64,000 bases of DNA. Origin: an uncultured Subdoligranulum sp. GTDB taxonomy: Bacteria > Bacillota > Clostridia > Oscillospirales > Ruminococcaceae. The notes under the pieces are model-generated. The model ran no database searches and had not been told where the DNA came from. It worked only from the letters and a program-made list of their open reading frames with translations. A program made the translations under genes and the position numbers. Each line of letters begins with the position of its first letter. The first letter of the stretch is position 1. Shown here piece by piece: positions 23,416-48,070 of the stretch. The stretch spans positions 117 through 64,116 of the forward strand of contig CALZZE010000014.1 of assembly GCA_945830575.1 (NCBI GenBank). Reading direction: 5' to 3'.

Positions 23416-24303
23416 ATGACAGACCTTCTCGAACGGAAAAGTGTTGAGGAAATCAGGGACTCCAAAAACTGTATCTATTTGTTGGATGACGAGGATATGT
23501 TTAGTCAGCTGGGACATAAGGTGCTTCTCTCGCGAAAGGTCCCATGCTTGTTGAATGTCGCCAAGATTCGCTACAACGGACAGACTGAACTGATCTATTT
23601 GACGGAGGGACTTCAAAACTATCTTACCATCATGCCAACGCTTCCCAGAGATGGTGTCTATATGCTTTGCGCAAAAGTGATGGAATCGGTGTTGAAGGTA
23701 AAAAATCAAGGATTCCTTGCAGTGGAGAATCTTGATATCTCCATGGACAAAGTATATTTTGACCCGAAAACCTATGAAGCCTACTTGGTTTATCTGCCGT
23801 TATCCGCCGGAGAGGGTGAAAATGGGCCGCTGTTTGAAGCTGAATTGCGTCATTTGCTCTTGCAGTTTGTAAAGCAGTCCTCCACGATTATTTCCGAACA
23901 AGAGCGCTGTATTGTGGATGCGCTGACGAACGGAACAGGGGGCGGCTTGGAAGGAATCGCGAAGATATTCCAGAACACCAAGCAAAGCTCCCCTGTGCAG
24001 GAGAGGAGTCTGCAGCTGATAAGCATGAACCCCAATTTGCAGATCACCTTTGCAATGAGAGGTCAGGCCGCTACCATTGGCAGACGGAAAGGCTGTGATT
24101 TGACGTTGGATTTTTCCAATCAGATCAGTCGTCTGCATTGTACTCTGAAGAAAAAGGATGATTCTTTTTATATCAAGGACGAAGGAAGTTCTTTTGGTAC
24201 GGGATTAAATGGAAAGAAGATTCCGGCCATGAAAGAGATTCCGGTAAAGAACGGTGACGTTTTGATGTTGCCGGGAATTAAGTTCAAAATCAACATAAGG
24301 TAA
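23416..24303 (+). CDS. FHA-domain protein with N-terminal DUF6382-like domain
   Basis: C-terminal TIGR...ISRLHC...IKDEGSSFGT FHA motifs. Start is either GTG 23359 or ATG 23416. Confidence 0.8.
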   Translation: MTDLLERKSVEEIRDSKNCIYLLDDEDMFSQLGHKVLLSRKVPCLLNVAKIRYNGQTELIYLTEGLQNYLTIMPTLPRDGVYMLCAKVMESVLKVKNQGFLAVENLDISMDKVYFDPKTYEAYLVYLPLSAGEGENGPLFEAELRHLLLQFVKQSSTIISEQERCIVDALTNGTGGGLEGIAKIFQNTKQSSPVQERSLQLISMNPNLQITFAMRGQAATIGRRKGCDLTLDFSNQISRLHCTLKKKDDSFYIKDEGSSFGTGLNGKKIPAMKEIPVKNGDVLMLPGIKFKINIR

Positions 24304-24313
24304 GGGAATACCT

Positions 24314-25384
24314 ATGGGAAAACCATTACTGGTTATTGCGATTTCCGATGAAAGCTATCTGTCTCCTCTGGTGGTGGGACTTGCAGTAAAGCTGTACGAA
24401 ACGGCGGATATTGAGGTTATTTCCGACACTGCGTATTTTGAGGAGTTTTTTACCTGCCCCAGAAAAATCGACTTACTGATTACAGATGAAGCTTTCCACC
24501 GTGCGGACTTGAAATGTCATAGTATCCAGAGGACGGTAGTCCTGTCAGAAGAAATGGCAGAGGATTCACAGGAGGATTGCAATACACATATTACGGATGG
24601 GCGGCAGGTAGCATACATATTCAAATACCTGAATTTGCCAGTTTTAATCAGTAGCATTATCCCCCGTGAATGGATTGGAACAAAAACACAGGGGGCGGTC
24701 ACGCAAATCATTGCCGTGACAGCCGCAGAAGGCGGAGCGGGCTGCACGACGGTGGCCATGGGAATTGCCGCTTGTTTAAAACAAAGCCTTAAACGAGTTT
24801 TGTTTGTCAGCGCGAGAACGCTTCAGGATTTCCAGAGTGTTCTGCAAAATCGAACCCCGCTCTCGATTCGCGGCTGTTCCGGACTAAGAGCTGCAACGCC
24901 GAAGGTTTATTACGATCTCAAACAGGAAATCCAGAAAGAATGGTTTTCTTTTTTGCCGGCACTTCCCTCTTCGCGCTATTCGCTTAATATTACAGAAAAA
25001 TCTCTTGGAACCTTTCTGCAGGCGGCTCAGAAATCCGGTGAATATGATGCAATCATTGTGGATATAGGCAATGAACTGACACCTGGAAACATAGAATTGC
25101 TCGACTTGGCATCAAAGGTGTTGGTTATTACCCGTCAGGCAGAGTCTTCCGCTGCGAAGCTGGAAATGCTTTTACATAATATTAACTGTAGTGATTCCGA
25201 ACGTTTTCATTTCGTATGCAATCAGTATGATATGGCCCGTTCCAATGCGCTGACAAATGGATCTTTCTCAGGAAGCGTGAAAATTGAGGAGTATATCTCT
25301 GAATTCAAAGAGCTGGAAACGGTTGGCGTAAAAGAGCTTGCAAAGAACTCTGACCTGCAAAAAATAGCGTATGCGTTAATGTGA
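24314..25384 (+). CDS. MinD/ParA/CpaE-like protein with degenerate Walker A and receiver-like N-terminus
   Basis: AAEGGAGCTTVA (Lys replaced by Cys), YDAIIVDIG. Confidence 0.65.
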   Translation: MGKPLLVIAISDESYLSPLVVGLAVKLYETADIEVISDTAYFEEFFTCPRKIDLLITDEAFHRADLKCHSIQRTVVLSEEMAEDSQEDCNTHITDGRQVAYIFKYLNLPVLISSIIPREWIGTKTQGAVTQIIAVTAAEGGAGCTTVAMGIAACLKQSLKRVLFVSARTLQDFQSVLQNRTPLSIRGCSGLRAATPKVYYDLKQEIQKEWFSFLPALPSSRYSLNITEKSLGTFLQAAQKSGEYDAIIVDIGNELTPGNIELLDLASKVLVITRQAESSAAKLEMLLHNINCSDSERFHFVCNQYDMARSNALTNGSFSGSVKIEEYISEFKELETVGVKELAKNSDLQKIAYALM

Positions 25385-25394
25385 GGAATATGAC

Positions 25395-25652
25395 ATGAAA
25401 GATACAGCAGTAGTCGTGGTGAGAAGAAAGCTGGAAGGCCGGATTATGGATTCAGATGTGGAGGTTCCGCTGAACATCTCTGCGAATGAGCTTGTCAACG
25501 CGCTGAACAGTGCCTACAATCTCGGAATCCATACAGAGGACTACCGAAACTGCTATCTTCGTTGTGAACGTCCTATTGTGCTGCTTCGCGGGGAAAGAAG
25601 TCTGAGAAGTTTTGGCGTCAGAAACGGAACGCTGATTCACTGCAACGAGTGA
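25395..25652 (+). CDS. esaB: EsaB/YukD ubiquitin-fold T7SS component
   Basis: 85 aa; DVEVPLNISANELVNAL...SLRSFGVRNGTLI; directly upstream of essC. Confidence 0.8.
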   Translation: MKDTAVVVVRRKLEGRIMDSDVEVPLNISANELVNALNSAYNLGIHTEDYRNCYLRCERPIVLLRGERSLRSFGVRNGTLIHCNE

Positions 25653-25662
25653 GGGATATGCC

Positions 25663-28600
25663 ATGGATATGCAGTATAAAGCAATATTGGCAAACAAAAC
25701 GATATACAAAGAGATTCCTCTTCCTGCCAATGCGACAACGGTTTCTGTCGGAACGGCGCCAGGGGTCGATGTTCGGCTGTCCAAAAATCTGTTTTTTGAA
25801 CAGTTTGAACTTTTGTTTACCAATGAAGGCAGTGATTGGGTAGTCACTTGTTCGCCCAATGTGTATATCAGCGCGGGATCTTCCAGCAAACTGCCGCAGA
25901 AGCAGCTTGTTCACGGAGATGAATTGCAGGTCAAATACCATTCCACCGATGTAGAAATGGTATCCATGAGTATTATGGTCGACTTTGATGAGGTTGATCA
26001 GGATTTTTTCCGGGCAATCGATTTGAAGGACCATACAAAGGTGATGATTGGCGGAGCCAATCAGTGTGATATTCGGATTACTGACAAAGAAGTAGCCAAT
26101 GATCTGGTGGCCCTGACGGCACAGGGACAAGGGTGGCAGTTGGAAGAAGTCCGCTCAAATTACGGCGTCTATGTGAATGGAACCCGAATCCAAAGAAAAG
26201 CCCTCTTGCGTAATCATGACTTTTTTGCGTTGGATAAGTACAAATTCTTCGTCAGAGGGAGCAGACTGTACACTACTGAAGCGCCTGAAATTCAGGTGCA
26301 TGGCTTGGCGCAGCGTTTGGAAAAACCATCTTCCAACAGTTTGGCCTATCCAAAGTTCAACCGAACGACCCGAATGAAAACCAAACCTAATACAGAGGAA
26401 ATCACGGTTCTTGACCCTCCCGAAATGCCGCAAAAGCCGCAGGAAAGCTTGGTGGCAACGCTGCTGCCGGCATTGGCTATGCTGGTAGTTACTGTGGTCA
26501 TTCGCGGTATGATGAGCAGCACGTCAAGCTCTTTTGTGTTGCTTAGTGTCTGTACGATGGGCATCGGAATTGTGACCTCCATCGCCAATTATATCTCCAA
26601 TAAGAAAAAATATAAAAAAGAGGTGGAGGAGCGAAGAAAAAAATTTACATCATATATAGATCAGAAGAAGCAATTCATCGACACGGCCCGCCAGGAAGAA
26701 TTGCGGGACTTGGAACAGATGTATTACTCTGATATGCAGGATGCAAAGCATATTATGGAGTTTTCGGATAAGCTGTTTGACAGAACCGCCAGCGATGATG
26801 ACTTTGTGGAGGTGTACCTGGGAAAAGGAAGCAGAACATCCCTGCGTCAAATCAAGTATAAGGAGCAGGAAAAAATCGAGGTCGTGGACGATCTGGCACA
26901 AGTACCCGAAAAAATTAAAGAAGATTATAAGGAATTGGAAGGTGCGCCGGTCACGTTGGCACTTTCCAAATATGATGCGGTTGGTGTGGTAGGATCCTAT
27001 CGTCAGAACTTCCAGATGCTTAAGAATATGACGATGGATCTGGCATCCAGACATTACTACACAGATCTTCATTTGTATTATATCTGTTCTGAGGAACATG
27101 CTGCTGAAATTAGATGGGCGCGTTGGCTACCACATACCGAGAATGCTGCGCTGGGAATCCGCAATATCGTCTGTGATACAGCCAGCAGAAATTTGATTTT
27201 TGAGCAGCTATTTGTACAACTGTCGGCCGAAAAAGAACGAAATAGCAAAAATGATACTGTACAGGAGAGAAGTGTTCTCTTCGTCTTGGATGATATGGGC
27301 ATCAACCAGCACCCCATCTCCCAGTATATCAGGAATTGTAAAGAAAAAGGAGTGACATTTGTCTTTTTCAGCTCCTGCCCGGAGTACATTCCGCAAAACT
27401 GTGGTGCGCTGATCCGCATGGGTGAAAATAATGGAGAAGCGGAGCTGATCCAGAGTGATGACAGCCAGAATGTGCAAAAATTTGTTTACGATGTATTGCC
27501 GGATGCGCTGGTGGAACAGGCTTGCTTGAAATTGGCGCCGGTCTACTGCGATGAGGTGAGTCTGGAGGGAAGCCTGACCAAAAACTATAGCTTCTTCCAG
27601 ATGATGAATATTTTTGGGCCGGAAGATTTGGATTTGCAAAAGAACTGGGATTCGGCCAATATCAAAAAAACCATGCGGGCGCCGCTGGGCATCAATGCAA
27701 AGAAAGAGACTGTATATCTGGACCTGCACGAAAAAGCGCATGGCCCCCACGGTTTGGTGGCTGGCACGACAGGTTCAGGAAAATCGGAAATTTTGCAAAG
27801 CTATATTCTGTCGATGGCGATTCACTATCATCCTTATGAAGTGGGTTTCCTGATTATTGATTTCAAGGGCGGCGGTATGGCCAATCAGTTCAGGAATCTT
27901 CCCCATATGCTGGGCGCGATCACGAACATTGATGGAAAAGAAATTGACCGTTCTTTGAAGTCTATCAAGGCAGAGTTACAGAAACGCCAGCGCCTGTTTG
28001 CAGAATACGATGTAAACAAGATTGATGATTACATCGAAAAATTCAAGCAGGGGCAGACAAAAATCGCGCTGCCGCATCTGATTATCATTGTGGACGAATT
28101 TGCGGAGCTCAAAGCAGACCAGCCGGAGTTTATGAAGGAACTCATTTCCGCTGCCCGTATTGGCCGCAGTCTTGGCGTTCACCTGATACTTGCAACGCAG
28201 AAACCCTCCGGTCAGGTAAATGAGCAGATTTGGAGTAACTCGAAGTTTAAGCTTTGCTTAAAGGTTCAGAACCAGGAAGACAGCAAAGAAGTAATCAAAT
28301 CACCTCTGGCTGCAGAAATTCGTGAGCCGGGCCGTGCGTATTTGCAGGTAGGGAATAATGAGATTTTTGAGCTTTTCCAATCTGCTTATAGCGGGGGACC
28401 ATCGAAAGCTGATGAAAATGTTGCGGAGCATGAGTTTTCTCTTCAGGAATGCAACCTGTGGGGGAAACGGGATGTCATTTATCGGAAAACAAAAAATAAG
28501 ACTGGCGAAGAAGGCCGGGGTCAGACGCAGTTGGACGTGGTTGTTGGATATGTAGAAAGCTATTGCGAAACTTCCAACATACAAAAGCTGGCGAATATTT

Positions 28601-30210
28601 GTCTGCCACCTCTTCCGGAAGTGCTGCCTTATCAAATGGCGGATACAAAAGCGAAACAAAACATTGAGGTGGGCGTGGGCTTGTATGATGACCCGGACAA
28701 CCAGTATCAGGGCAAGGTAGTTCTTGATCTCACTGCGAGCAATACGATGATTATCGGTTCTTCCCAATATGGAAAAACCAATCTTCTGGAAGTTCTTCTC
28801 CGGGGATTACAGGAACGGTATACACCTCAGCAAGTGAATGTTTACATCCTGGATTTTGGCTCCATGATTCTAAAAAATTTTGAGAGATCTCAGCTTGTTG
28901 GTGGTGTGGCCTGTGCCTCTGAAGATGAGAAAGTCAAAAACCTCTTCAGACTGATCATGCGCTGCCTTGCAGAACGTAAAGAGAAACTGTCTAAGGTAGG
29001 AGTCAGTTCCTTCGCTTCTTATCTGGAAGCCGGTTATACGGATATGCCGCAGATTGTAATCATGGTCGACAATTTTGTAGGACTGAGAGAACTGTACCTG
29101 TCCGACGATGATGTCTTACTTCCGATTTGCCGGGATGGACTATCTTACGGTATCAGCGTTATTATGACAACATTGCAGAGTTCAGGCGTTGGTTATCGGT
29201 ATATGAGCAACTTCGCACAGAAAGTGGTTTTGTACTGCAATGACAGCGGGGAATACTCCTCGGTTTTCGACAGATGCCGTATGCAGCCAAGCAATGTTCC
29301 GGGACGCGGATTGATTGAATTGGATAAGACAGTTTATGAGTTCCAGTCATATTTGTGTTATGAAGCAGACAGAGAAATTGAAAGAGTCAAGGCAATCCGA
29401 GAGGAAATTGCCGGTGCAAACCGTCGTTTTGGTGAGATGAAGGCAAAACCTATTCCAGAAATTCCGACCGTTCTTGATATGGCCTATGTGCAGCAGAACT
29501 TCAATGAGCAACGAGAACCATATCGTATTCCTATTGCCATGGATTATGAATCTGTGGAATGGGTTATGCTGGATCTGCGCAGGATTTCTACAATTTGTGT
29601 CACTGGACGCGAAAGGTTTGGGAAAACCAACTTCTTGAAACTGGTGATGAATCACTTACAGAACAATCTGTTTGATGAGCCTTCAGAAGTTTTCATATTT
29701 GACGATTACCGCCGTCAGCTTGCAGATTTCACGAAATATGGCATGGTTGAAAAATATACGGTGGATCGAAGCGAATTGGATATTGTGCTGGACCAGATAG
29801 AAGCTGAATTGAAAGAACGCCAGAAAATGGTTCGGGATGGACTCGACATTCAGGATGAGCCATTGCTTCTGTGTGTGCTTCAGGATGAGGATATTCTTAC
29901 AGCGGATGGGCTTAAGAAAGCGCAGGCGGACATCATTCGGCGTATTGTAAAAAATTATGGAAAACTGAAAGTATGCTTTATCTTTGCGGAGGTGGAAAAT
30001 GCGGCTTTCGGATACAGCGCACCGGAAGGAATCAAGCTGGCAAGAGAAAGTGCCTTCACCATTTTGTTTGATGATTTGGCAAATCTCAAACTTGTGGATG
30101 CGGGGACTGCGAATATCCGCAAGTTCAAGAAACCAGTTTCGTTGGGAGATGCGTATCTGATTACAGATAAGAATGTTATCAAGCAGAAAGTAATTCATGC
30201 AGAAGAATGA
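25663..30210 (+). CDS. essC: Type VII secretion ATPase EssC
   Basis: N-terminal FHA-like region, TM hairpin, three P-loop domains (GTTGSGKS with IIVDEF, GSSQYGKT, GRERFGKT), RSLGVHLILATQKP. Confidence 0.95.
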   Translation: MDMQYKAILANKTIYKEIPLPANATTVSVGTAPGVDVRLSKNLFFEQFELLFTNEGSDWVVTCSPNVYISAGSSSKLPQKQLVHGDELQVKYHSTDVEMVSMSIMVDFDEVDQDFFRAIDLKDHTKVMIGGANQCDIRITDKEVANDLVALTAQGQGWQLEEVRSNYGVYVNGTRIQRKALLRNHDFFALDKYKFFVRGSRLYTTEAPEIQVHGLAQRLEKPSSNSLAYPKFNRTTRMKTKPNTEEITVLDPPEMPQKPQESLVATLLPALAMLVVTVVIRGMMSSTSSSFVLLSVCTMGIGIVTSIANYISNKKKYKKEVEERRKKFTSYIDQKKQFIDTARQEELRDLEQMYYSDMQDAKHIMEFSDKLFDRTASDDDFVEVYLGKGSRTSLRQIKYKEQEKIEVVDDLAQVPEKIKEDYKELEGAPVTLALSKYDAVGVVGSYRQNFQMLKNMTMDLASRHYYTDLHLYYICSEEHAAEIRWARWLPHTENAALGIRNIVCDTASRNLIFEQLFVQLSAEKERNSKNDTVQERSVLFVLDDMGINQHPISQYIRNCKEKGVTFVFFSSCPEYIPQNCGALIRMGENNGEAELIQSDDSQNVQKFVYDVLPDALVEQACLKLAPVYCDEVSLEGSLTKNYSFFQMMNIFGPEDLDLQKNWDSANIKKTMRAPLGINAKKETVYLDLHEKAHGPHGLVAGTTGSGKSEILQSYILSMAIHYHPYEVGFLIIDFKGGGMANQFRNLPHMLGAITNIDGKEIDRSLKSIKAELQKRQRLFAEYDVNKIDDYIEKFKQGQTKIALPHLIIIVDEFAELKADQPEFMKELISAARIGRSLGVHLILATQKPSGQVNEQIWSNSKFKLCLKVQNQEDSKEVIKSPLAAEIREPGRAYLQVGNNEIFELFQSAYSGGPSKADENVAEHEFSLQECNLWGKRDVIYRKTKNKTGEEGRGQTQLDVVVGYVESYCETSNIQKLANICLPPLPEVLPYQMADTKAKQNIEVGVGLYDDPDNQYQGKVVLDLTASNTMIIGSSQYGKTNLLEVLLRGLQERYTPQQVNVYILDFGSMILKNFERSQLVGGVACASEDEKVKNLFRLIMRCLAERKEKLSKVGVSSFASYLEAGYTDMPQIVIMVDNFVGLRELYLSDDDVLLPICRDGLSYGISVIMTTLQSSGVGYRYMSNFAQKVVLYCNDSGEYSSVFDRCRMQPSNVPGRGLIELDKTVYEFQSYLCYEADREIERVKAIREEIAGANRRFGEMKAKPIPEIPTVLDMAYVQQNFNEQREPYRIPIAMDYESVEWVMLDLRRISTICVTGRERFGKTNFLKLVMNHLQNNLFDEPSEVFIFDDYRRQLADFTKYGMVEKYTVDRSELDIVLDQIEAELKERQKMVRDGLDIQDEPLLLCVLQDEDILTADGLKKAQADIIRRIVKNYGKLKVCFIFAEVENAAFGYSAPEGIKLARESAFTILFDDLANLKLVDAGTANIRKFKKPVSLGDAYLITDKNVIKQKVIHAEE

Positions 30211-30221
30211 GGGTGCATGTT

Positions 30222-30542
30222 ATGGCGGACAACTCTACGGCCAGTGCTGGTGCACATGTGGATTATCTGGACAGTTCCGGCTTTGATGAAGCAATAAAAG
30301 CTTTTGAAACGGCCTGCAACAAGTACAAGGATATCAAATCGTCGGTAGAAAGAGAAACGGCATCTCTTCTTTCCGTTTGGGAAGGTGAGGGTGCAGCCCA
30401 GTTTGAAAAAGACTACAGACTGATTTATCAACAACTGGATGATATTTTGGATTTGATGTATGACCTTTATAACGGATTGATTGAGGCTCAGGCCGCCTAT
30501 CTGAAAACTGATCAGGAACTGTCCAAACAATATACTGCATAA
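30222..30542 (+). CDS. WXG100-family protein
   Basis: About 106 aa, helical, central WEG motif; follows essC. Confidence 0.85.
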   Translation: MADNSTASAGAHVDYLDSSGFDEAIKAFETACNKYKDIKSSVERETASLLSVWEGEGAAQFEKDYRLIYQQLDDILDLMYDLYNGLIEAQAAYLKTDQELSKQYTA

Positions 30543-30556
30543 AGGAGGACCGTTCC

Positions 30557-31024
30557 ATGAGCAAACAAACGGCAGCGATAAAAGCGAAAATTAATGCGGT
30601 AAAAAGAGAAAAGAGTGCGGCAGAGAAGGAACTTCGAAAACAGAAACAGAGACTGAAAGAAGTTCAGGAACTGGAGAATGGAATTCAGGATGTCTCCAGC
30701 AGTCATTGTTCAATATTCAATAACAACCTGTATCAGGGTACAGGTCAAATGTGTTCTTTGATTGAATGGACTGGAATTCGGAATAAAGCGTTCGAAATCG
30801 AATCGACACAGAAGGAAAAAGACCTCTGGAGCGATCCGTTGCTGGAGAATGCGGAGGACAGCCTGAGACAGGAGCGCAATGAAGTGCAGCGGAAAATCAA
30901 TGAGCTTGAACAGAAAATCGTGTCTTTGGAACGGGACATTGAGAATCTCCAACGTTCGCTCAAGTGTGCAGAGCAAAAGGAGCAGGAAGAAAAGCTTGCG
31001 ATGCAAAAGCAGGTAAAAGCTTGA
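30557..31024 (+). CDS. Coiled-coil WXG100-like / effector-partner protein (DUF5082-like)
   Basis: AAGGAGG RBS; helical hairpin with central EWTG. Confidence 0.6.
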   Translation: MSKQTAAIKAKINAVKREKSAAEKELRKQKQRLKEVQELENGIQDVSSSHCSIFNNNLYQGTGQMCSLIEWTGIRNKAFEIESTQKEKDLWSDPLLENAEDSLRQERNEVQRKINELEQKIVSLERDIENLQRSLKCAEQKEQEEKLAMQKQVKA

Positions 31025-31049
31025 TTCTGAGAGAGAGGGGGGATCCAGA

Positions 31050-32738: not shown

Positions 32739-33361
32739 GAAAATACTTTACGGTGGATGAAAAGCAGTATCAGTCTCTGGCAAAGCAATGGTTGAAACGC
32801 TCCCCCGAAATGAAGAAGTGGAAATGGATCAGCCGGATGTTTTACATCGGCGCGGTTGCCGCGTTCTTCTGGATGGTGTGGTACCTTTTTCCGTCATCTA
32901 CGCAAGACACAATGATCGTGGTCATGAGTGTGGTGATGGGCCTCCTTGCGGCTCTGGTTGTCGCATGTGTCGGGGTGGTTGTTTCTAAAAGCGGAGTCTC
33001 TGTTTTGGGCGGTCAGGCATATTATATGTCGCAGATGCAGTTGTGTTACGATGAAGAAAATCTGATTCTGGCATATCACCCCTATCTCGACAGGTCTGAC
33101 CTTACCAGTATTGGTGTTAACACGGTCCCTTTCTCAAAAATTGAATCCGTAGAAATAGAAAAAGATACGTCTCTGGTTACAATCAATGGTTCGTGTACCT
33201 TTGACCTGTACAGAACCGTCGCAGGGCAATCGGTGAGGATGGAAGAATCAGACAGAAAATACAAAAAATGGTCCAGTCTCCGATTCTTTATGGCGATTCA
33301 GGAAAAGGCGGCGTTCTATCAAATGTTACAGGAACATAGAATTCCGATCAAAGAAATGTGA
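32735..33361 (+). CDS. Two-TM membrane protein, candidate immunity protein
   Basis: ATGA overlap with the effector gene; two TM helices followed by a soluble beta-rich domain. Confidence 0.55.
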   Translation: MRKYFTVDEKQYQSLAKQWLKRSPEMKKWKWISRMFYIGAVAAFFWMVWYLFPSSTQDTMIVVMSVVMGLLAALVVACVGVVVSKSGVSVLGGQAYYMSQMQLCYDEENLILAYHPYLDRSDLTSIGVNTVPFSKIESVEIEKDTSLVTINGSCTFDLYRTVAGQSVRMEESDRKYKKWSSLRFFMAIQEKAAFYQMLQEHRIPIKEM

Positions 33362-33370
33362 GGTGTGACA

Positions 33371-35457: not shown

Positions 35458-35503
35458 AAAACCGGGGGCGCTTCGCCTTGCGGGAACGCCCCCGGTCATT
35501 TTT
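35458..35503 (+). terminator. Intrinsic terminator after esxA
   Basis: ACCGGGGGCG...CGCCCCCGGT followed by CATTTTT. Confidence 0.65.
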
Positions 35504-35519
35504 CAAAAGGAACAGGTTT

Positions 35520-37177: not shown

Positions 37178-37188
37178 CTGGTGAAGCT

Positions 37189-37950: not shown

Positions 37951-37951
37951 G

Positions 37952-39643: not shown

Positions 39644-40182
39644 TGATGTCAAATATCTTTTCGATTCTGTCGATTGTCTGCTTTGCACTGGCGGGTATTC
39701 TGGCAATCGCAGCGGTAGTGCTATTCTTTGCGCTGGATGTGCGCGGCGTGTATGAGGAATTACAGGGGCGTGCGCCTGTCAAAAAGGAGCGGCGAAAGAA
39801 GGAAAAGCCGCAAAAGGAAACGCCCACCCAAACCGACCGGGAGACGCCCACACTCGTACAGGACGAGGCAGTCACGGTGCTGGACAACGGCGAGTTGGAT
39901 TTGGATTCGCTGGTGACCTACTATGAACCGGGAACGGAATTCGGGGAGGAAACCACCGCGTTGGATGCGGAACAGCCAACGGCGGCCGAAATCGGGGAAA
40001 CCGAAATGCCCACCGTCATGGGAGAGGAAGAGGCTCCTACGGCGTTGGAGGACACACCCGAAGAAGCATTGACTTCGTTGGAGGAAGCGGACACCGCAGC
40101 CGACCAAACACAAACCGGGTTTGTATTGCAGAAGGACATTGTACTGACCAATCGGGAAAAGGCATTGTACCAACTGATTTAA
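39643..40182 (+). CDS. Membrane protein with acidic Thr-repeat tail
   Basis: N-terminal TM; about 8 E-x-x-T-x-x-(D/E)-like units. Confidence 0.7.
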   Translation: MMSNIFSILSIVCFALAGILAIAAVVLFFALDVRGVYEELQGRAPVKKERRKKEKPQKETPTQTDRETPTLVQDEAVTVLDNGELDLDSLVTYYEPGTEFGEETTALDAEQPTAAEIGETEMPTVMGEEEAPTALEDTPEEALTSLEEADTAADQTQTGFVLQKDIVLTNREKALYQLI

Positions 40183-40222
40183 TATAAAAATAGAGGAAAT
40201 TCAACTGGAGGATTGATGAAAT

Positions 40223-43200
40223 ATGAACCAAAGTACCTACACATTGGGTCATAGGATTCTCGCCCTGCTGTGCGCGTTGGCATTGGCCATTGGCTTGATG
40301 CCCACCGCAGCGTTGGCGGAAGCGGTTATGCCGTTGACGGAAACAGCGGTAACAGGAGTGACCCTGAAAAATGGAGAAACCCCTGTTACTGAGCCAATCA
40401 CGATTTACACCACAGCACCGAACAACACCCTGACGCTCACTGCGACCGTGGAGCCGGAAGGAGCTGTCGGAGATGTGATCTGGACAAGCGGCAATCTGGA
40501 GGTTGCCACCGTTGACAACAATGGTGTTGTGACTGCGGTTGCTGCCGGCACTGCTACGATTACAGCCACCGCAACGAATGGCACGGATAGCACTGATGAT
40601 GACATGCCGGAAACCTGCACCGTTTCTGTCAAAAAGCACGTTGATACCATCACGCTTACACCGGCAACGACTGTGCTGACGATTACGAATACCGTGTCAA
40701 ATCCTACCACGACCATTGCCGTAGCATATGGGCCTGAAGATGCAGATGAAGCCGAGAAAAGTGTGACCACTTGGGAAAGCAGCGACAGCACTGTTGCAAC
40801 TGTCGCAAATGGTTCAGTAACCGCACTTAAAGCTGGTAAGACAACCATCACAGCGAAAAACAGCAATGGTGTAAGCGGCCAGTGCGAAATTACCGTCACG
40901 GAAACGACCGCCACGGGGATCACGATTAAGCAGGGAGATGCTGTGGTCAGTACCCCGTTGGAGGTTGTCTATGGTGAGTCGGTACAACTGACAGCGGCGG
41001 TGGAGCCTGAGGGTGCTGTTGGTAATGTAGAGTGGAGCAGCAGCAATCCGGAGGCGGTTTCTGTTGATGAGACTGGCAAGGTGACGGTCAACAACGTTGT
41101 TGATGACGAGGTTACCATTACAGCTAAAATTGGTGGACAGTTTGCCACTTGCACAATTGAGACCAAGAAAAAAGCTGTTGAGATCACGAACATTGTGTTC
41201 GCGTCCCGTCAATACGACGGAAAAACAAGGCTGTCGGATGTGCCGACCATCACCTTGAATCCCGCAGTAGAGAATGCCGTTGTGGAAGGGTTGACTTTCA
41301 CGGTGGAATCTTCCGATGCAGGGGAAAATAAGATTGTCTCGGTGACTTGCGGTAGCCTTTCTATCAAAGATGACCCCAATTATCAGGTGACCATGCATCA
41401 GGGTTTGGAACCGACCATCACGATTATCCCGAAGCCCCTCAATGTCATCTTGTCAGACCAGACTTACAACGGGACGAGCACATATTCCGGGGTTGTTGCT
41501 ACTGTTGGTGGATTGATTGAAGAGAACGCTTCCACAGAGTATCAGGTTACAGCTTCCGCACAGAGTAAGATTGATGCGGGAAACGACAAAGCCGTTACCA
41601 TTACATGGCCGGATGATGACCGCGATATCACAAACTATACCTGGCCTACTGAGGGGAACCTAAAGGTTAACCCGAAACCCATCGCATTCAGGGTAAAAGT
41701 CGACAATAAGGGATATGATGGAACAACCGCAGTGAAAGCCATCTTATACAATACCACAACGGACGCTCCGGTGGGTGATGACGTAAGTACGCAACCAGGA
41801 ACAGGCACTTTTACCAATTCGCTTACAGAGGATAATCTGGAATTTATCGGCACTGGCGTCATTGATAATGACACGGAAAATGTTGGCGTGAAGCTGAAAG
41901 AAAATGCAACGGTCAGCATTTCGTTGAATAGAACTGAGACTACCAATTACGTCCCGAAGTTTACAATCGACTCTGCGAATATTACCAAGAACAGCTACCC
42001 GGAGGATACAGGTTTTGCCCTCCCGAATGCAGACTATACGCAGAATACCACCGAAGGAAGTATCCGGTGGTACAAAGTTGAATCGGAAAACCGTACAATT
42101 GGTATTGCGGCAATGAGCGGCTATGCGATTGCCAGTGAAGAAGGAGGAGCCTACGCCAGTTCCATTTCGGTGTCCCCGTCTGAAAATGACGCGGTGACAG
42201 TGTTTGTGAAAAACACTGCCGACAATACGCTTTCTAAGGAAATAGTAAACAATATTAAGGTGGATTATACAGCCCCGTCTATTGATACGGAAGGAGCAGC
42301 AGGAAATCTTGCTTTTGGGCAGGACGGCAGTGTTACTTATACCATCAAAGTGACCGATGAAGATTCCGGAGTGAATCCGGAAACAGTGCAATACTGCATC
42401 AGCAACAGCAGTTCTTCCAGCGATGGAGCTGAATGGACGCGGGCTGTTGTGGATGGGGATGTTGACAACAATGGTTACACCTTTACTGTTACCGCGCCCA
42501 AGACTGGCTATGTGTATGTAAAGGCTACAGATAACGTTGGCAACACCTATGAAACCAGCTCTATCCGTGCTTTGGTACTGGAAACGCAGATGCCGACGGT
42601 GACAGCAACCTGTGCTGATGCAGGAGATGCCGCAAAGACCCACACTATCCGGTGGACCGCCTCGGATGCTGAGGAAGCTGGCAGTGATCCGTATTCCTAT
42701 TCCGGCATTCGGTTGGTTATTTATGAGTTGAAAAAAGATGGGACAGTAGTCCAGACAGGCAAACTGAAAGAGAACGACGCGCCCACAGAGATGTCTGGCC
42801 TGCCAAGTGTGCGCGCATGCGATGAGAACTATCTTATAGACAATGCGCAATTGGACGGGGAATACACCCTGACCGTCACCGCAACGGATTTTTGTGGTAA
42901 TTCCCAAACCAGTGATCCGCTGACATTGCAATTCGATCATACGCCTCCGACGGTAACTGTTGCCATGTCCGGCGGCGTTGAGATGGATGGAACATTTTTC
43001 TACAACGCCAACAACTGTGGTATTACCATCACAGTTGGCGATAACTATCTGGCGCAGGGGGTCTCCTATACAGCGGCGCTGGAAGGAATGGATAATAGAA
43101 CCGGAACATTGAGCGGCGGAGCAAACGTCATTGCATTCAGTAAGGAAGAGGTAGCAGCTTCCGGGGACAGCGTTTCCAAAACCCTGACGCTCTCACTGAC

Positions 43201-46200
43201 GGATAAAGCGGGCAATACAACGTCTGAAATAACTACCCGTGTCGGTGTGATTGGTAGCGGTATGCAGGCTTTCTTTTCGCTGGATACTACCCCGCCCCGC
43301 CTGACTGTGGTAACCACCAGTGTGGCTACCAGCGGCTTGTATACGGATACCAACGCAGCTTACTACAATGCGGATTCTGTCACAACTACCTTCACCATCG
43401 TGGAAGCCAATATGCCTGCACAGTGGGATTTGAGCTATACAGCCGATAACTCCACTCAACCTGCGGATATGGCGGCATCTGCCGAAGGAAATGTTTCTGT
43501 TATTCTGACGGAAGAAGGAACGTACTCCAGTATTGCGGTTGCTGGACAGGACAAGGCTGGGAACAAGCTCGAATTGGACGCCATTTCTCCGAATCCAGAG
43601 GATGTGGTCACCTGCAGCAACGGGAAAGCGGTACTGACCTATGCCAAGGTGCTTGACCGCACTGCGCCAACGGCGGTGATTACCTATCCTGCTACGGCTA
43701 ACCCTTTGTATCCCAGTGATGAAGGAGAAAACACCGGCACGGCGATCTATTATAATTCCGATGCAACTATTGAAATTCAGATAGCCGACACATATGGCAC
43801 TATAGCAGTTCCCATTGATCTGGCCAAACTGACTGCTAAACTGAATGGAAGCACGGGAGTGACGGTTTCTAATTCAGGGGCAGCCAGCGTATCGGTCACG
43901 GAGGACAGCCGGAACACGGTTGCCGTGTTCGGTACGGATCGCGCAGGAAATACCCTTCAGGTGAAGGAAATCATTGACGGAAAACAAGGCAGTGAAACGC
44001 CTCTGGTTAGCGCATTGGATTCCTACGCCTCTGTCTACACTGTAGTCCGGGATACCGTGGCCCCGGTGTTGACGCTGGATTTCAATAACACTGACACCAC
44101 CGGCTCCTATTATGAGGCCGATAAAGGCACCCACTACTACCCTGAAAATGGAAAATACCGTGCGTATTATGGCAATACCGTTACGACAATTATCCCGTTG
44201 GTGACGGCAATCGTTGATGCAAACGGCGTTGATTTCTCCAGAATATTCTCGGCCACAAATGAGAGTGCGTTTGCACCCCTTGGGGCAGATAAGACGAACT
44301 ATGGTGTAAATGGTTCGGAGCGGGCGATGGTGGAAGAAGTGACCAGGGATGGAGACTACCTTTTCTTCATCTACGGTACGGACAAAGCCGGCAACGCTCT
44401 CGTGGTCAAAGAAAACAAAAAGACCAGTGATGTGGATGTGGATAATGAGGGAACTCCTGGATGCGGTGATGTAGAGCATAAGTATAGCACATATCCGAAG
44501 ACATTGGATACCAAAGCTCCGGAAGTTGTTTTGAGCTATGCTTTCGCGGATGACACTCCGCTGGAGGCAACGCATTACTACGACAACAACGCCTATTACA
44601 AAAATTCTTTTGCTGCGACTTATGCCTACTCCGATGAAAACGGCATTGATTTGACCAAGGTTTTCAAGACGGTGGCCGCCAGCGAGGGAAGTGGATTCGG
44701 CGCTGTAGGAACAAATCCGATTGATGTTTCGGACAAAATTGAAATCCCGGCCTCTGTGGACAATAACGGCCATTATCAGTTCGGTGCCTACGGTGTCGAC
44801 AAGGCGGGTAATGCACTGACCGTGAAGGAAATGAATACTTCCGGACCGGCTGTGCAGGCTCCCGATTCCACCGGAAGAAATGCCGACAACAAGTTTGTCA
44901 GCATTTATCATAAGGTGCTCGATACAGTCAACCCGGTTGCGACCATTACGGTTGATGCGGGGAACTCTCTGCGCAAGGAACTGCAAACCAACTACAACAA
45001 CCGGTATTACTTCAACGACAGCTTTACCACGACGATCTCTGTTGCGGAAACCAACTATGATGCTGCGAAAGTAACGGCTCGTGTTGGCAGCGTCAACAGC
45101 AGCACAGTAGAACAAAACGGAAAAACGCTTCAGACACAGGAGGTCTCGGCAACATCGGTGCTGACTACACACGAGGCCGCCAGCCCGTATATGTATTCGC
45201 AACAGGTAACCGCTGATGGTGTATACTGTTTTGATCTGAAAGGCGTCGACCGTGCGGGCAATCAGATTGTCCTGAATGGTGGGGATCGTGCTGCTAATTT
45301 TGTACAGACGGTAGTAAATGACACAATCGGTGATGAACTTACAGAGCGTTATGTCACATATGCGTTTGCGGAAGATAAGACGGCTCCCGTGCTGAATGTG
45401 ACCATGAAAGACGCCAACAACAAAAACAATGGTTTCAATCAGCAGACGGGCAACTTCTATGAAGCAACTCTTACCTCTGTCGGGTATCAGCTGAGTACGA
45501 ACTATCCGTATCGTTCCAGCAAGGTTGCAGATTTTGCCTTCACGACAAAAGACAACAGTCCTGTTACGGTTTTGTACAAGGTGGACTCCACCGCAGCAAA
45601 CAGCAACTTCGCTTACGAACGCAATGGTGCTGCGGGAATGATTGGACAGGCCGGAGCTGCTGGAGCAGAGGCCTATGTAGATGGTCTTGCCTACACCCAG
45701 CAGACGGCAGATAAGGAACAGATCCTCCAAATCAACTCCCTGTTGATTGAAGATTTGGCCGGCAACCAGGTATCCTATTCCAAGACGGAAAACGAAAACA
45801 AAATTTATCTGGATGTGTCTGCCCCGACCGATGACCAGTTGCAGCCTGTCGTTCGTTTGAGCTATCCCAGTCCTGTGACCCAGAATACGATGAGCCACCG
45901 TGACATTAGCGGCGTGAATCTGTATAAGGACACCGTTGTTGTAACCGCAGATGTGATGGATCCGTACACCAATGCATCGCAGGAAGCGAGAGGCTCTGGT
46001 TTGTACCGGGTGTATTATAAGGTCACCGTGAACGGAGAATCGCAGACAGGAAAGGTTGGCATTCAGACCGGCAGCGGGAAGTCTGCTGTGGCAGCAGATG
46101 ATGGCGTTTACTACATCGATTACAATACCACAGGACAGTCCGGCCCGGTGAATGGCGGAAATGAAACGCTTACCGCATCGGATAAACTGACGTTTACGTT

Positions 46201-48070
46201 CAATCCCAACGATGGCGTGTTCAACTACAACAGCATTGTTCTCACGGTTTGGGCAGTGGATAACGCCAACAATGAGATTGCCGATGCCAATAAAGCAATT
46301 TACAAATTTGGTGTTGATGTTACCGCGCCAATCATTGAAATCAGCTATGATAACAATGACGCCGAAAACGAGAAATACTTCAAGGCTGACCGGACGGCGA
46401 CTGTCGTTGTGACAGAGCGCAATTTCGATGAATCCAAAATTGACATCGTTACAGAATCGAATTCCATCAGTGGGTGGTCCTATTCGGCTGGCGCGGCCGC
46501 GAACGGCGATGAGGATAAGTGGACATGCACCATCAGCTATAATGTGGATGGTGTCTATACACTGAACATCTCCGGCGCGGACCAGCTTGGTATCAACGCT
46601 GCTTCTGTGACTTACGATGGCGTAGCACCGCAGAGTTTTGTGATTGATAAAACCGCACCTGTGGTGGATGTGACCTTTGACAACAACGATGTGCGCAACG
46701 GGAAATACTATAACCAGAGCCGCACTGCTACCGTTTCTGTCACAGATGTCAACTTCAATGGCGTCAATGCCATTGATGTGAGTGCCGCAGTGGGCGGCGC
46801 TGCCCCGGCGGTTTCCTTCAATGGACTTACGGCAACCCTTCCCTTTACCACGGACGGAACCTATTCCTTCCGGGGTACAGTGACAGATATGGCCGGTAAC
46901 GTGTCTCAGGAATTTACCGTAGACGAATTTGTGATCGACCAGACTGCGCCAGAGCTGAGCATTGAAGGTGTTGAGGATTTGGTGGCTTATCCGGGCGAGG
47001 TACTGCCCCGCATTGTGTTCAGCGATCAGAACTATGAAGGCAACACCATTCAGCTTCTCAGAACCGTACTGGATCAAAAGAATGTGGATGTATCCGAGTT
47101 GATTGTCCCCAATGGCGGCGTGACCGCTGGAGCAGATGGCTTGGGTACCGGATCCATCTCCTATGAGGATTTGGAACATGTACAGGAGAATGACGGCATT
47201 TATACTCTGACGGCTTCTGTGACAGACCTGGCCGGAAACTCCACGGAGGATGAAGTGACCTATTCGGTCAACCGCTTCGGCTCTGTGTATGTGTACAGCG
47301 ATGCGCTGACCAATATGATTGGCGCATACAAGCAGAAGGCTGATGAAGGTCTGTACATCTCTGCATACAATGTTTCTCCGTTGATTGAGGATTCCACCAA
47401 GCTGCAAATCTCCTGCGACGGTGCTTCTTTGAGCAATCAGAACAGCAAAGCTGTTGTGACCGGAGGCGCTCAGGCCGGCAACAGTGGCTGGTATGAGTAT
47501 CGCTTCGATATCAGCGGAAACGACTTGACTGGAGATGGGCGATACGAAATCACACTGTCGGATAAGGACGAGGCGGGCAATACCAAGACCAATGCGGAAA
47601 ACCCCATTTGGTTCTACATTGATGCTACCAAACCTTCTCTGGATAGCGTCATTGGCCTCGAAAACAGCATCGTCAATGCGGACAGCCAGACGGTTTCCTT
47701 CATGGCGAGCGATGCAATTGCCTTGAGCAGCATTCAGGTTTACATCGATGACGAGCAGATACAGCAGGCAGACGATTTTGAGACGACGGCCTACGAAAGT
47801 GAGTTCCAAGTGGGTACAGGTCTGCGGCACAGGATTCGGTTTGTCATCACCGACAAGGCAGGCAATGTACTGGATACCGATGAGGATTCCTTTGTACCTT
47901 CCTACACCTTCAACAAGGTGATGACGGTATCTACGAATTTCTTTGTTCGCTGGTTTGCCAACACACCGCTGTTTGTGGGTTCCATTGCGGTTGGTGCAGG
48001 CGGCATTGGTACGGCTGCATTTGTGTTCATCAGAAAACGGCGTCGCATGACTGTTTCGGAAGATGATTGA
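40223..48070 (+). CDS. Giant (2615 aa) Ig-like-repeat surface protein
   Basis: Signal peptide; Big_2-like repeats (WTSGNLEVATVD, WESSDSTVATV, WSSSNPEAVSVD); YDG-type motifs; more than 10 D(K/R/L/M)AGN Ig-like repeats; C-terminal TM plus RKRRR. Confidence 0.9.
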   Translation: MNQSTYTLGHRILALLCALALAIGLMPTAALAEAVMPLTETAVTGVTLKNGETPVTEPITIYTTAPNNTLTLTATVEPEGAVGDVIWTSGNLEVATVDNNGVVTAVAAGTATITATATNGTDSTDDDMPETCTVSVKKHVDTITLTPATTVLTITNTVSNPTTTIAVAYGPEDADEAEKSVTTWESSDSTVATVANGSVTALKAGKTTITAKNSNGVSGQCEITVTETTATGITIKQGDAVVSTPLEVVYGESVQLTAAVEPEGAVGNVEWSSSNPEAVSVDETGKVTVNNVVDDEVTITAKIGGQFATCTIETKKKAVEITNIVFASRQYDGKTRLSDVPTITLNPAVENAVVEGLTFTVESSDAGENKIVSVTCGSLSIKDDPNYQVTMHQGLEPTITIIPKPLNVILSDQTYNGTSTYSGVVATVGGLIEENASTEYQVTASAQSKIDAGNDKAVTITWPDDDRDITNYTWPTEGNLKVNPKPIAFRVKVDNKGYDGTTAVKAILYNTTTDAPVGDDVSTQPGTGTFTNSLTEDNLEFIGTGVIDNDTENVGVKLKENATVSISLNRTETTNYVPKFTIDSANITKNSYPEDTGFALPNADYTQNTTEGSIRWYKVESENRTIGIAAMSGYAIASEEGGAYASSISVSPSENDAVTVFVKNTADNTLSKEIVNNIKVDYTAPSIDTEGAAGNLAFGQDGSVTYTIKVTDEDSGVNPETVQYCISNSSSSSDGAEWTRAVVDGDVDNNGYTFTVTAPKTGYVYVKATDNVGNTYETSSIRALVLETQMPTVTATCADAGDAAKTHTIRWTASDAEEAGSDPYSYSGIRLVIYELKKDGTVVQTGKLKENDAPTEMSGLPSVRACDENYLIDNAQLDGEYTLTVTATDFCGNSQTSDPLTLQFDHTPPTVTVAMSGGVEMDGTFFYNANNCGITITVGDNYLAQGVSYTAALEGMDNRTGTLSGGANVIAFSKEEVAASGDSVSKTLTLSLTDKAGNTTSEITTRVGVIGSGMQAFFSLDTTPPRLTVVTTSVATSGLYTDTNAAYYNADSVTTTFTIVEANMPAQWDLSYTADNSTQPADMAASAEGNVSVILTEEGTYSSIAVAGQDKAGNKLELDAISPNPEDVVTCSNGKAVLTYAKVLDRTAPTAVITYPATANPLYPSDEGENTGTAIYYNSDATIEIQIADTYGTIAVPIDLAKLTAKLNGSTGVTVSNSGAASVSVTEDSRNTVAVFGTDRAGNTLQVKEIIDGKQGSETPLVSALDSYASVYTVVRDTVAPVLTLDFNNTDTTGSYYEADKGTHYYPENGKYRAYYGNTVTTIIPLVTAIVDANGVDFSRIFSATNESAFAPLGADKTNYGVNGSERAMVEEVTRDGDYLFFIYGTDKAGNALVVKENKKTSDVDVDNEGTPGCGDVEHKYSTYPKTLDTKAPEVVLSYAFADDTPLEATHYYDNNAYYKNSFAATYAYSDENGIDLTKVFKTVAASEGSGFGAVGTNPIDVSDKIEIPASVDNNGHYQFGAYGVDKAGNALTVKEMNTSGPAVQAPDSTGRNADNKFVSIYHKVLDTVNPVATITVDAGNSLRKELQTNYNNRYYFNDSFTTTISVAETNYDAAKVTARVGSVNSSTVEQNGKTLQTQEVSATSVLTTHEAASPYMYSQQVTADGVYCFDLKGVDRAGNQIVLNGGDRAANFVQTVVNDTIGDELTERYVTYAFAEDKTAPVLNVTMKDANNKNNGFNQQTGNFYEATLTSVGYQLSTNYPYRSSKVADFAFTTKDNSPVTVLYKVDSTAANSNFAYERNGAAGMIGQAGAAGAEAYVDGLAYTQQTADKEQILQINSLLIEDLAGNQVSYSKTENENKIYLDVSAPTDDQLQPVVRLSYPSPVTQNTMSHRDISGVNLYKDTVVVTADVMDPYTNASQEARGSGLYRVYYKVTVNGESQTGKVGIQTGSGKSAVAADDGVYYIDYNTTGQSGPVNGGNETLTASDKLTFTFNPNDGVFNYNSIVLTVWAVDNANNEIADANKAIYKFGVDVTAPIIEISYDNNDAENEKYFKADRTATVVVTERNFDESKIDIVTESNSISGWSYSAGAAANGDEDKWTCTISYNVDGVYTLNISGADQLGINAASVTYDGVAPQSFVIDKTAPVVDVTFDNNDVRNGKYYNQSRTATVSVTDVNFNGVNAIDVSAAVGGAAPAVSFNGLTATLPFTTDGTYSFRGTVTDMAGNVSQEFTVDEFVIDQTAPELSIEGVEDLVAYPGEVLPRIVFSDQNYEGNTIQLLRTVLDQKNVDVSELIVPNGGVTAGADGLGTGSISYEDLEHVQENDGIYTLTASVTDLAGNSTEDEVTYSVNRFGSVYVYSDALTNMIGAYKQKADEGLYISAYNVSPLIEDSTKLQISCDGASLSNQNSKAVVTGGAQAGNSGWYEYRFDISGNDLTGDGRYEITLSDKDEAGNTKTNAENPIWFYIDATKPSLDSVIGLENSIVNADSQTVSFMASDAIALSSIQVYIDDEQIQQADDFETTAYESEFQVGTGLRHRIRFVITDKAGNVLDTDEDSFVPSYTFNKVMTVSTNFFVRWFANTPLFVGSIAVGAGGIGTAAFVFIRKRRRMTVSEDD

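Follow-up and report, generated by a model that had tools for sequence, protein, structure and literature searches.

Gene content of a type VII secretion cluster

We analysed a 64,000-nucleotide stretch of DNA (hereafter the window), corresponding to bases 117-64116 of contig C14 (71,188 bp) in the assembly of an uncultured Subdoligranulum sp. (2.88 Mb in 69 contigs), in which genes for a non-canonical type VII secretion system (T7SS) follow the conjugation genes of an integrative conjugative element (ICE), with an invertible recombinase cassette at the head of the secretion cluster. Coordinates are window positions throughout, and all genes discussed lie on the + strand unless marked (-). An initial annotation, made from the sequence, had placed esaB, essC and several WXG100-like genes downstream of virD4, in a block more AT-rich than the tra genes. 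Both statements hold, as we recovered a YukD protein, an EssC recognized by the TIGR03928 model, three WXG100 proteins recognized by Pfam and one WXG-like protein, and the G+C content is 54% in the ICE backbone, 45% between 23.4 and 36.6 kb, and 51% between 36.6 and 48.1 kb. For comparison, contig C14 has a G+C content of 50.6% and the whole genome of 59.7%. Transmembrane (TM) topologies were obtained by hydropathy analysis, and motifs were read directly from the sequences.

The cluster opens with a gene for a soluble protein with DUF6382 and FHA domains by Pfam (TsxJ-like protein 1; 23416-24303, the start being that of the gene caller), in which the phosphothreonine (pThr)-binding residues GR, SxxH and NG are present. 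The following P-loop protein of the TadZ/MinD/CpaE type (TsfV-like; 24314-25384) matches Pfam AAA_31 and, weakly, the NCBIfam models BcsQ, Ssd and MinD. Since both of its Walker A lysines are replaced (AEGGAGCTT), this protein may bind nucleotide without hydrolysing it. After the gene for a YukD/EsaB ubiquitin-like protein (TsxB; 25395-25652; Pfam YukD, 1.8e-6) comes that of the EssC/TsxC ATPase, of 1515 amino acids (aa; 25663-30210), which scores 1184 bits against TIGR03928 (cut-off 778) and matches Pfam FtsK_SpoIIIE and FHA. The N-terminal FHA-like domains of EssC lack GR and SxxH, two TM helices are found at residues 262-308, and the remaining domains are ATPases of the FtsK type.

Downstream of essC lie a WXG100 gene (TsxA; 30207-30542; WEG motif; Pfam WXG100, 7.4e-9) and a candidate effector unit of three genes (30557-33361), whose products of 155, 562 and 208 aa match no family in Pfam or NCBIfam. 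The 155-aa product (30557-31024) is a coiled-coil protein with a WTG motif, and thus WXG-like; the 562-aa product combines a helical hairpin at its N-terminus with a hydrophobic core rich in Gly and Ala, and its AlphaFold model is poor overall, with the hairpin at residues 8-108 modelled at a pLDDT of about 63-87. The gene of the 208-aa product, which has two TM helices and may be an immunity protein, overlaps that of the 562-aa protein. A cytoplasmic tetratricopeptide repeat (TPR) protein follows (33365-34720; Pfam TPR families and a weak match to the N-terminal domain of EccA1), and then two further WXG100 genes (34707-35006 and 35126-35425; Pfam WXG100, 1.2e-8 and 4.8e-15).

The distal part of the cluster is rich in putative signalling proteins. 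It begins with a 185-aa single-pass membrane protein (TseK/H-like; 35478-36035; TM helix at 36-54) that has homologues in L002, L158, L010 and L026, and with a second soluble TsxJ-like protein (36062-37177), in which Pfam and motif reading place DUF6382, an acidic Thr-rich linker and an FHA domain that has GR and SxxH. A PP2C/PPM phosphatase (TsxF; 37144-37950; Pfam PP2C_2, 1.4e-11) carries the motifs DGxGG, GDSR, SDG and DN. The adjoining Hanks-type Ser/Thr kinase (TsxD; 37952-39643; Pfam Pkinase, 2.7e-42; one TM helix at 279-297) looks active, with a Gly loop, catalytic K44, HDLKPGN, DFG and APE, the invariant catalytic columns being common to 24 homologues. Its structural model (pLDDT 88) has S. 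aureus Stk1 as best match in the PDB and an ectodomain of all-helical repeats, in which Pfam finds no TPR; in the fold search with this model, matches to kinase domains swamp any likeness between the ectodomain and EssB. A 179-aa protein (TseH/K-like; 39643-40182), which has a TM helix at the N-terminus and a Thr-rich tail, basic at first and then acidic, that is predicted to be cytoplasmic, is a candidate kinase substrate and FHA docking site. The last large gene (40223-48070) encodes a giant immunoglobulin (Ig)-repeat protein of 2615 aa (Pfam Big_2, Big_3_3 and Big_13) with a signal peptide and, at its C-terminus, a TM anchor, and a 174-aa open reading frame (ORF) without family match in Pfam or NCBIfam (48169-48693) ends the cluster. 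The FHA, CpaE/MinD-like, TPR, PP2C, kinase and Ig proteins named in the initial annotation were therefore all confirmed.

The same annotation had recognized no EssA, EssB or EsaA, and our searches agree with it. No cluster ORF matches EssB/YukC (PF10140), EssA or EsaA in Pfam at E<=0.01, and none of these proteins appears in NCBIfam among the ten cluster ORFs scanned, which include all those without a Pfam domain. In the whole genome neither YukC (PF10140) nor EsaA (TIGR03929) was matched, with Bacillus subtilis as a positive control.

Relatives of the window EssC, at 38-62% identity, were found in 80 representative genomes of Lachnospiraceae, Oscillospiraceae, Ruminococcus (R. albus), Clostridium, Butyrivibrio and Anaerocolumna. 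Of these 80 loci, 68 retain the order J, TadZ-like, YukD, EssC, and with it the TadZ-like protein and its adjacency to TsxJ-like protein 1; YukD is present in 79. Kinase, PP2C and Ig genes are common in these loci, in many cases upstream instead of downstream, with a kinase homologue in 39 loci and homologues of the Ig giant in 36. The TPR protein is found in 18, as well as in L158 and L159, and the terminal 174-aa ORF has no homologue in any. Conjugation genes occur within 10 kb of the EssC locus in none of the 80, so this type of T7SS is usually chromosomal.

Inversion of a recombinase cassette at the head of the cluster

The most unexpected feature of the locus, not mentioned in the initial annotation of the cluster, is an invertible cassette at the head of the cluster. 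Between virD4 and the first T7SS gene lies the gene of a 389-aa tyrosine recombinase (22115-23284; Pfam Phage_integrase, 4.8e-26), preceded by a GGAGG ribosome-binding site, the exact product of which is encoded on 13 public contigs. The gene is bracketed by two 29-bp recombination sites, each with an 11-bp arm, a 7-bp spacer and an 11-bp arm: site 1 at 21865-21893, with the spacer TTGGATA, and site 2 at 23303-23331, with the spacer TATCCAA, 84 nt before the first T7SS gene. Since one spacer is the reverse complement of the other, the sites are oriented as inverted, not direct, repeats, and they delimit a cassette of 1467 bp (21865-23331).

Inversion of this cassette was observed. Both predicted inversion junctions, with the breakpoint at site 1, were found letter for letter in L126, L127, L129 and L131, which come from four samples and from more than one assembly pipeline, with contigs as long as 50 kb, and also in L156, which bears a different T7SS allele (see below). 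The orientation of the window occurs in at least ten assemblies and the inverted one in five. Moreover, stand-alone cassette contigs of 1.46 kb, recovered from six samples, start exactly at the single mismatch between the arms, and those of L120 also end there, as would be the case with both orientations present side by side. Within each pair of sites the spacers co-vary, being TTGGATA/TATCCAA in the window, TTAGATA/TATCTAA in L156, and AGGGAAA/TTTCCCT in a paralogous cassette of the same genome on contig C22. A scan of Joint Genome Institute (JGI) metagenome contigs for the recombination site gave one unrelated match.

The paralogue (C22:27213-28690) encodes a recombinase 62% identical to that of the window, and lies on the margin of a low-GC island, ahead of a gene for a 777-aa helicase-like protein and polysaccharide-synthesis genes. 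Together the two cassettes suggest a family of self-contained tyrosine-recombinase invertons. A more distant cassette, found in L159, differs in its inverted repeats, which are 14-19 nt long, and encodes a recombinase only 33% identical; it directly precedes a T7SS whose EssC is 61% identical to that of the window. The three diverged cassettes have an outward consensus promoter in common: TTGAAA-17-TATAAT in C22, a perfect TTGACA-17-TATAAT in L159, and in the window a promoter-like site at 21928-21956 (-), consisting of TTGAAA, 17 nt and TG-n-TAAAAT, with 10 of 12 consensus matches plus the TG. Inversion would turn this last site towards the T7SS and place it about 140 nt ahead of the first start codon. 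From these positions we infer that the cassette controls the T7SS by means of its promoter, and which of the two states would be the 'on' state.

The recombinase gene was also considered as the integrase of the ICE or of an island. This assignment was rejected because the gene is bracketed by inverted sites and the segment is found flipped, which is not the behaviour of an excision integrase at the end of an element.

Conjugation backbone, cargo slot and a second allele

The first third of the window (3-21324) is a conjugation and backbone module, recognized by Pfam and by a gene order that is the same in the ICEs of two complete genomes, G064 and G119. It contains, in order, genes for a D12 methyltransferase, SpoVG, DUF3852, TrbL_5 (4469-5335), DUF4314, VirB4 (7222-9678), an M23 hydrolase, DUF3846, an actin-like protein, the MobL relaxase (15385-16392), a Toprim/DUF3991 primase, ArdA, VirD4 (19263-21077) and HTH_36 (21013-21324). 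A type IV mating apparatus, a coupling protein and a relaxase are thus all present, as TrbL_5, VirB4, the M23 hydrolase, VirD4, MobL and the primase. The low-GC cargo module then starts with an Xre-type helix-turn-helix (HTH) regulator (21466-21738 (-); Pfam HTH_26/HTH_3), divergent from the T7SS.

Beyond the T7SS, further putative cargo on both strands (48854-63900) includes genes for a LexA-like S24 repressor (-), a 664-aa HTH protein, a TetR regulator, a Flg_new surface protein, a LytTR protein and ubiquitin-domain proteins. The backbone resumes past the end of the window, where an HTH protein gene is followed by SRAP, Y-family polymerase (ImpB), Macro and VWA genes (window-equivalent 66.1-71.1 kb, within the 64-71 kb part of C14). 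Two repeats were seen within this right-hand cargo. A 440-aa protein with a strong match to the eukaryote-type ubiquitin domain (58840-61314; PF00240, 2.5e-21) is followed by a tandem paralogue with about 83% DNA identity over about 985 nt, and two ORFs of about 160 aa share a 249-nt stretch that is 90% identical (55978-56226 and 63432-63680).

The related elements of G064 and G119, which belong to the same family, are chromosomal, with VirD4 proteins 58-63% identical to that of the window, and share the order methyltransferase, TrbL, VirB4, MobL, Toprim, VirD4, HTH_36. The G119 element continues past HTH_36 with 11 kb of unrelated cargo, which encodes AraC regulators and two rhamnosidases of the cell surface; homologues of a 103-aa ORF, SRAP and ImpB come next, and three serine recombinases close the element. 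Judged by gene order, C14 has the layout of the G119 element, with the T7SS in the cargo slot after HTH_36. No excision integrase is present on contig C14; by analogy with these relatives, the ICE's own integrase is expected to be a serine recombinase that lies off the contig. A comparison of 21-23.5 kb with the remainder of the contig revealed no att direct repeats above chance level.

The association of slot, cassette and T7SS recurs in other samples. Exact-protein look-ups led to over a dozen public contigs, and the order HTH_36, HTH (-), recombinase cassette, first T7SS genes is found on every one that reaches that far upstream, from at least seven samples; the longest of them also carry Toprim, ArdA and VirD4. 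The exact VirD4 protein itself was returned from one contig only. L111, L118 and L126 have a backbone with only 96.2% identity to that of the window and a T7SS module, from about 21.1 kb onward, that is 99.9-100% identical, a jump which argues for one cargo module on diverged backbones. The block that contains the Xre-type HTH is likewise 99.8-100% identical between two ICE backbone variants bearing the same T7SS allele. The region is accessory: a close EssC occurs in only three of 300 family genomes, the 48-64 kb stretch is absent from 18 genomes of the same genus except for two short matches, and two genomes of the same genus included in the family-wide searches have neither the stretch from VirD4 to the recombinase nor this EssC.

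A T7SS with the same gene order and an EssC 61% identical is found in L158 at a chromosomal site next to carB, without ICE or cassette, and with a G+C content of 45.5% against 47.6% in its flank. This is the presumed ancestral state of the system. A weak homologue of the Xre-type HTH (28% identity, E 6e-9) stands upstream of the T7SS of L158, in the matching position.

A second allele of the T7SS occupies the same ICE slot, behind the same cassette, in L156, the two EssC proteins being 71% identical overall. Here, L156:8038-14623 replaces the 28.4-36.6 kb part of the window, from the C-terminal part of EssC through the N-terminus of the second FHA protein. The exchanged block includes a WXG100 gene, candidate effector and immunity genes, and the TPR region, so that the 155/562/208-aa unit is replaced by other genes, among them the effector genes for a Peptidase_C39-like protein and a DUF4176 protein. 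The EssC C-terminus and the effector block are therefore exchanged between ICE copies. Variants of essC are known from S. aureus and Listeria, in which the EssC C-terminus and the downstream effector cassette co-vary, as they do here.

Both ends of C14 lie in repeated sequence. The left end is the end of an IS110-type repeat, with copies also on C6, C22 and C65. C14 bases 1-53, just left of the window, are identical to the end of C6, where the end of a truncated ABC-transporter gene follows, and the sequence of the C14 start (L121:1-140) has 91% identity over 141 nt with a stretch of C22 that holds a long hairpin directly upstream of an IS110-family transposase gene. This repeat may represent the non-coding (bridge-RNA) end of an IS110 element; no match came from an Rfam scan that covered the window and the contig-end extensions. 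Near the right end of the window, a 52-nt sequence (63797-63848), 93-96% identical to the extreme ends of C4, C22, C32, C45, C50 and C51, is the end of a multi-copy repeat that breaks the assembly.

The right end of C14 lies in a module common to several elements and named HTH125 after its 125-aa HTH gene; other assemblies extend the right side of the contig by this gene and a gene of 52 aa. In L133 the module, which is 99% identical there, is followed by a 570-aa serine recombinase and then by chromosomal genes, and L138 and L141 have the same gene order, with the last gene cut by the contig end. Followed outward, the module leads into three or more different contexts (a serine recombinase, SpoVG/conjugation genes and an hsdS-like gene), each a possible continuation of C14. 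About 790 bp, made up of the 125-aa HTH gene, the 52-aa ORF and non-coding DNA, are 99.1-99.7% identical between L122:19000-19756 and L133-L141 despite different neighbours on both sides, and look like a recombination hot spot or a shared regulatory module of this ICE family.

With backbone genes on both sides, in the order of related ICEs from complete genomes, and with the element continuing past 21.4 kb, the ICE-borne state proposed in the initial annotation gains in weight. We regard the carriage of the T7SS as ICE cargo as well supported and probable.

Interpretation and comparison with known systems

Taken together, we consider it probable that the locus is the cargo section of an ICE of about 72 kb, with a complete non-canonical system of the T7SSe/f/j group that is gated by the invertible cassette. 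The motor would be the FHA-EssC ATPase, working with the YukD-like and WXG100 proteins, and the place of EssA, EssB and EsaA would be taken by the TadZ-like scaffold with its degenerate P-loop, the membrane Ser/Thr kinase and PP2C, and the two soluble DUF6382-FHA adaptors, the set being completed by small single-pass proteins with Thr-rich cytoplasmic tails and the giant Ig-repeat envelope protein. In this scheme the kinase would phosphorylate the Thr-rich cytoplasmic segments found in the 179-aa protein, as its tail, and in the second FHA protein, as its linker; the DUF6382-FHA adaptors would bind the phospho-threonines, couple them to EssC or to the TadZ-like scaffold, and so promote the assembly or activity of EssC; and PP2C would reverse the phosphorylation and reset the system. 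The Ig giant may span or decorate the envelope, a role suggested for TsdI by Garrett et al. (PMC11217815).

The exported proteins would be the WXG100 proteins and a cassette-encoded effector, probably membrane-active and with its own immunity protein. Within the window unit, the 155-aa protein could be a helical partner, the 562-aa protein the membrane-active effector and the 208-aa protein its immunity protein, the sole structural support being the hairpin at residues 8-108. In the orientation of the window the promoter points away from the T7SS, which would then be off or low, and in the inverted orientation it faces the T7SS, which would then be on. For its movement the ICE would rely on the type IV apparatus that it encodes and, if it resembles its relatives, on a terminal serine recombinase, so that a whole switchable T7SS could spread by conjugation.

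Several observations weigh against this interpretation. The att ends, own integrase and circular form of the ICE were not found, and C14 breaks at repeats on both sides. Because the assembly is in 69 contigs, shared repeats are the only link that assigns C14 to its host. This type of T7SS is normally chromosomal, so its adjacency to the conjugation genes could reflect an ICE inserted beside a genomic island. Since the pThr-binding residues are missing from the EssC FHA domains, the link from phosphorylation to EssC is indirect. Promoter-like sites are no commoner in the cassette region than in shuffled sequence, and read-through from the recombinase gene could transcribe the T7SS in the orientation of the window.

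Three other explanations were considered. An independent genomic island, or accessory chromosome, beside an ICE that ends at HTH_36, with SRAP, ImpB and Macro as part of a second element, would account for the sharp drop in G+C at about 21.3 kb, for the recombinase gene at that border, for the missing att sites, and for the chromosomal occurrence of the same T7SS type, both next to carB in L158 and in the 80 related loci. However, the border recombinase is flanked by inverted sites and inverts, so it is no excision integrase; in the G119 ICE, SRAP and ImpB stand between the cargo and the terminal serine recombinases of one element; and the junction is kept across many samples and with a second T7SS allele. 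We regard such an island as unlikely. That C14 belongs to a conjugative plasmid instead, or comes from another organism through mis-binning, appears very unlikely, even if its actin-like segregation protein gene, its G+C content 9 points under that of the genome, its lack of an excision integrase and the contigs of about 72 kb obtained from independent assemblies could all be read in that way. A circularity test showed no terminal overlap between the ends of C14, a megablast search of the backbone against 72,556 plasmid records gave no match, and the nearest relatives are integrated in chromosomes, with serine recombinases. As for mis-binning, C14 shares the IS110-type end and the 52-nt repeat with other contigs of this genome, and on C22 the paralogous cassette sits beside chromosome of 60% G+C.

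The third explanation accepts the cassette but separates it from T7SS expression: its inversion would be neutral, the cassette being a selfish or decaying recombinase module, or else the cassette would control the divergent HTH regulator. We find this rather unlikely, although it finds some support in the fact that the promoter calls are consensus matches only, that the outward promoter faces the HTH (-) gene in the orientation of the window, and that the C22 paralogue precedes unrelated helicase-like and polysaccharide genes. On the other hand, in L159 a T7SS is again immediately preceded by a cassette of this design, with different sites and a recombinase of only 33% identity; site 2 is only 84 nt from the first T7SS start codon; and a promoter and recombinase gene within the inverted segment is the layout of the Salmonella Hin switch.

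The T7SSs of Bacillota serve in contact-dependent killing of competitors and in host interactions, and have so far been treated as chromosomal and lineage-bound. If our interpretation is true, an ICE-borne T7SS would allow repertoires of gut antagonism and immunity to be gained in a single conjugation event, and the invertible cassette would add bet-hedging, where only a fraction of the population pays for, or exposes, the machine and its huge surface protein. It is quite possible, and we propose it tentatively, that the locus holds a mobile, kinase/FHA-controlled and phase-varied T7SS with an exchangeable EssC C-terminus and effector/immunity block, the first mobile T7SS of Bacillota and the first under DNA-inversion control. 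In the literature searched we found no report of an ICE-borne T7SS in Bacillota, nor of a T7SS under DNA-inversion control, and the mobility of other T7SS variants is described as unclear by Garrett et al. (PMC11217815). The locus is also a compact natural system in which to study how the kinase/phosphatase/FHA module that replaces EssA, EssB and EsaA controls a T7SS, a question left open by these authors (PMC11217815).

Among known systems, the closest are those of Garrett, Higginson and Palmer (2024; microLife, PMC11217815), who defined T7SSc to T7SSj in Bacillota. Their T7SSe comprises two WXG100 proteins, a YukD-like protein, an FHA-EssC, a membrane kinase, a PPM phosphatase, a pair of single-pass proteins, a giant Ig protein that has a signal peptide and is anchored by its C-terminus, and a DUF6382-FHA protein that is soluble (PMC11217815). 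The full component set A1, A2, B, C, D, F, H, K, I and J is present here with the described topologies, that is, an EssC with two TM helices, a kinase with one, single-pass H/K, a soluble J and a giant anchored Ig protein. In contrast with T7SSe, our cluster further has a TadZ-like ATPase, two DUF6382-FHA proteins instead of one and a TPR protein encoded separately, and the FHA domain of its EssC is without the pThr-binding motif (GR, SxxH), which T7SSe EssC keeps.

A TadZ-like ATPase is found in T7SSf, and a TPR domain fused to the kinase in T7SSj (PMC11217815). The likeness to T7SSf lies in the core order J, V (TadZ-like), B, C, A, in the PPM phosphatase, in the occurrence in Clostridia, and in the EssC FHA domain, whose pThr motif is only partly conserved in T7SSf and likewise degenerate here. 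However, TsfJ is described with two TM helices, whereas J is soluble here and in most relatives, and T7SSf is described without the kinase and Ig protein that are both present here. Where the T7SSj kinase has a C-terminal TPR domain, ours has, according to its model, an ectodomain of all-helical repeats, next to a separate TPR protein. The cluster thus resembles T7SSf by its core order and degenerate EssC FHA, and T7SSe and T7SSj by its accessory genes, as far as can be read from sequence.

Identity between EssC proteins points to a position outside the T7SSe clade. Clostridium cibarium has two EssC proteins, and that of the window is 33% identical to the listed TseC (WP_143316561.1) and 46% identical to the co-resident, unlisted one (WP_143315318.1); in addition, the accession lists of PMC11217815 include no RefSeq accession from the ten relatives that were compared with them. 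By gene content and pairwise EssC identity, then, we place the cluster as a mosaic member of the published T7SSe/f/j group. The initial annotation had described a distinct clostridial variant, which is accurate in relation to T7SSb and does not hold for a new kind, this kind having already been published as T7SSe/f/j (PMC11217815).

With T7SSb of S. aureus and B. subtilis the cluster shares an EssC above the cut-off of the NCBI Firmicute EssC model, an EsaB/YukD protein and an EsxA-type WXG100 protein. Unlike T7SSb, its ORFs leave the EssA, EssB and EsaA models unmatched, and it has an active-looking kinase and a phosphatase where T7SSb has the EssB pseudokinase. A membrane kinase, PP2C and FHA adaptor within a secretion cluster are likewise found in the Thr-phosphorylation pathway of type VI secretion (PpkA/PppA/Fha1, and TssL-Fha in Agrobacterium), a parallel that Garrett et al. 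also draw (PMC11217815); the secretion machine differs, however, and the pathway proposed here is a putative one.

Conjugative carriage and inversion have their own precedents. Whole ESX (T7SSa) loci are found on plasmids and ICEs of Mycobacteriaceae (PMC5381665, PMC7478629), though in another phylum and with another type of T7SS, which there is part of the plasmid's own biology. The cassette, in turn, recalls Hin/hix of Salmonella and the promoter invertons of gut bacteria (fimS and the RecV switches of Clostridioides difficile), where inverted sites likewise surround an outward promoter and both orientations occur in nature, and it recalls Hin in particular by having the recombinase gene inside the inverted segment. 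It differs from the Hin, fimS and RecV switches in combining a tyrosine-family recombinase with full 11-7-11 core sites, and in that the locus under its control would be a T7SS.

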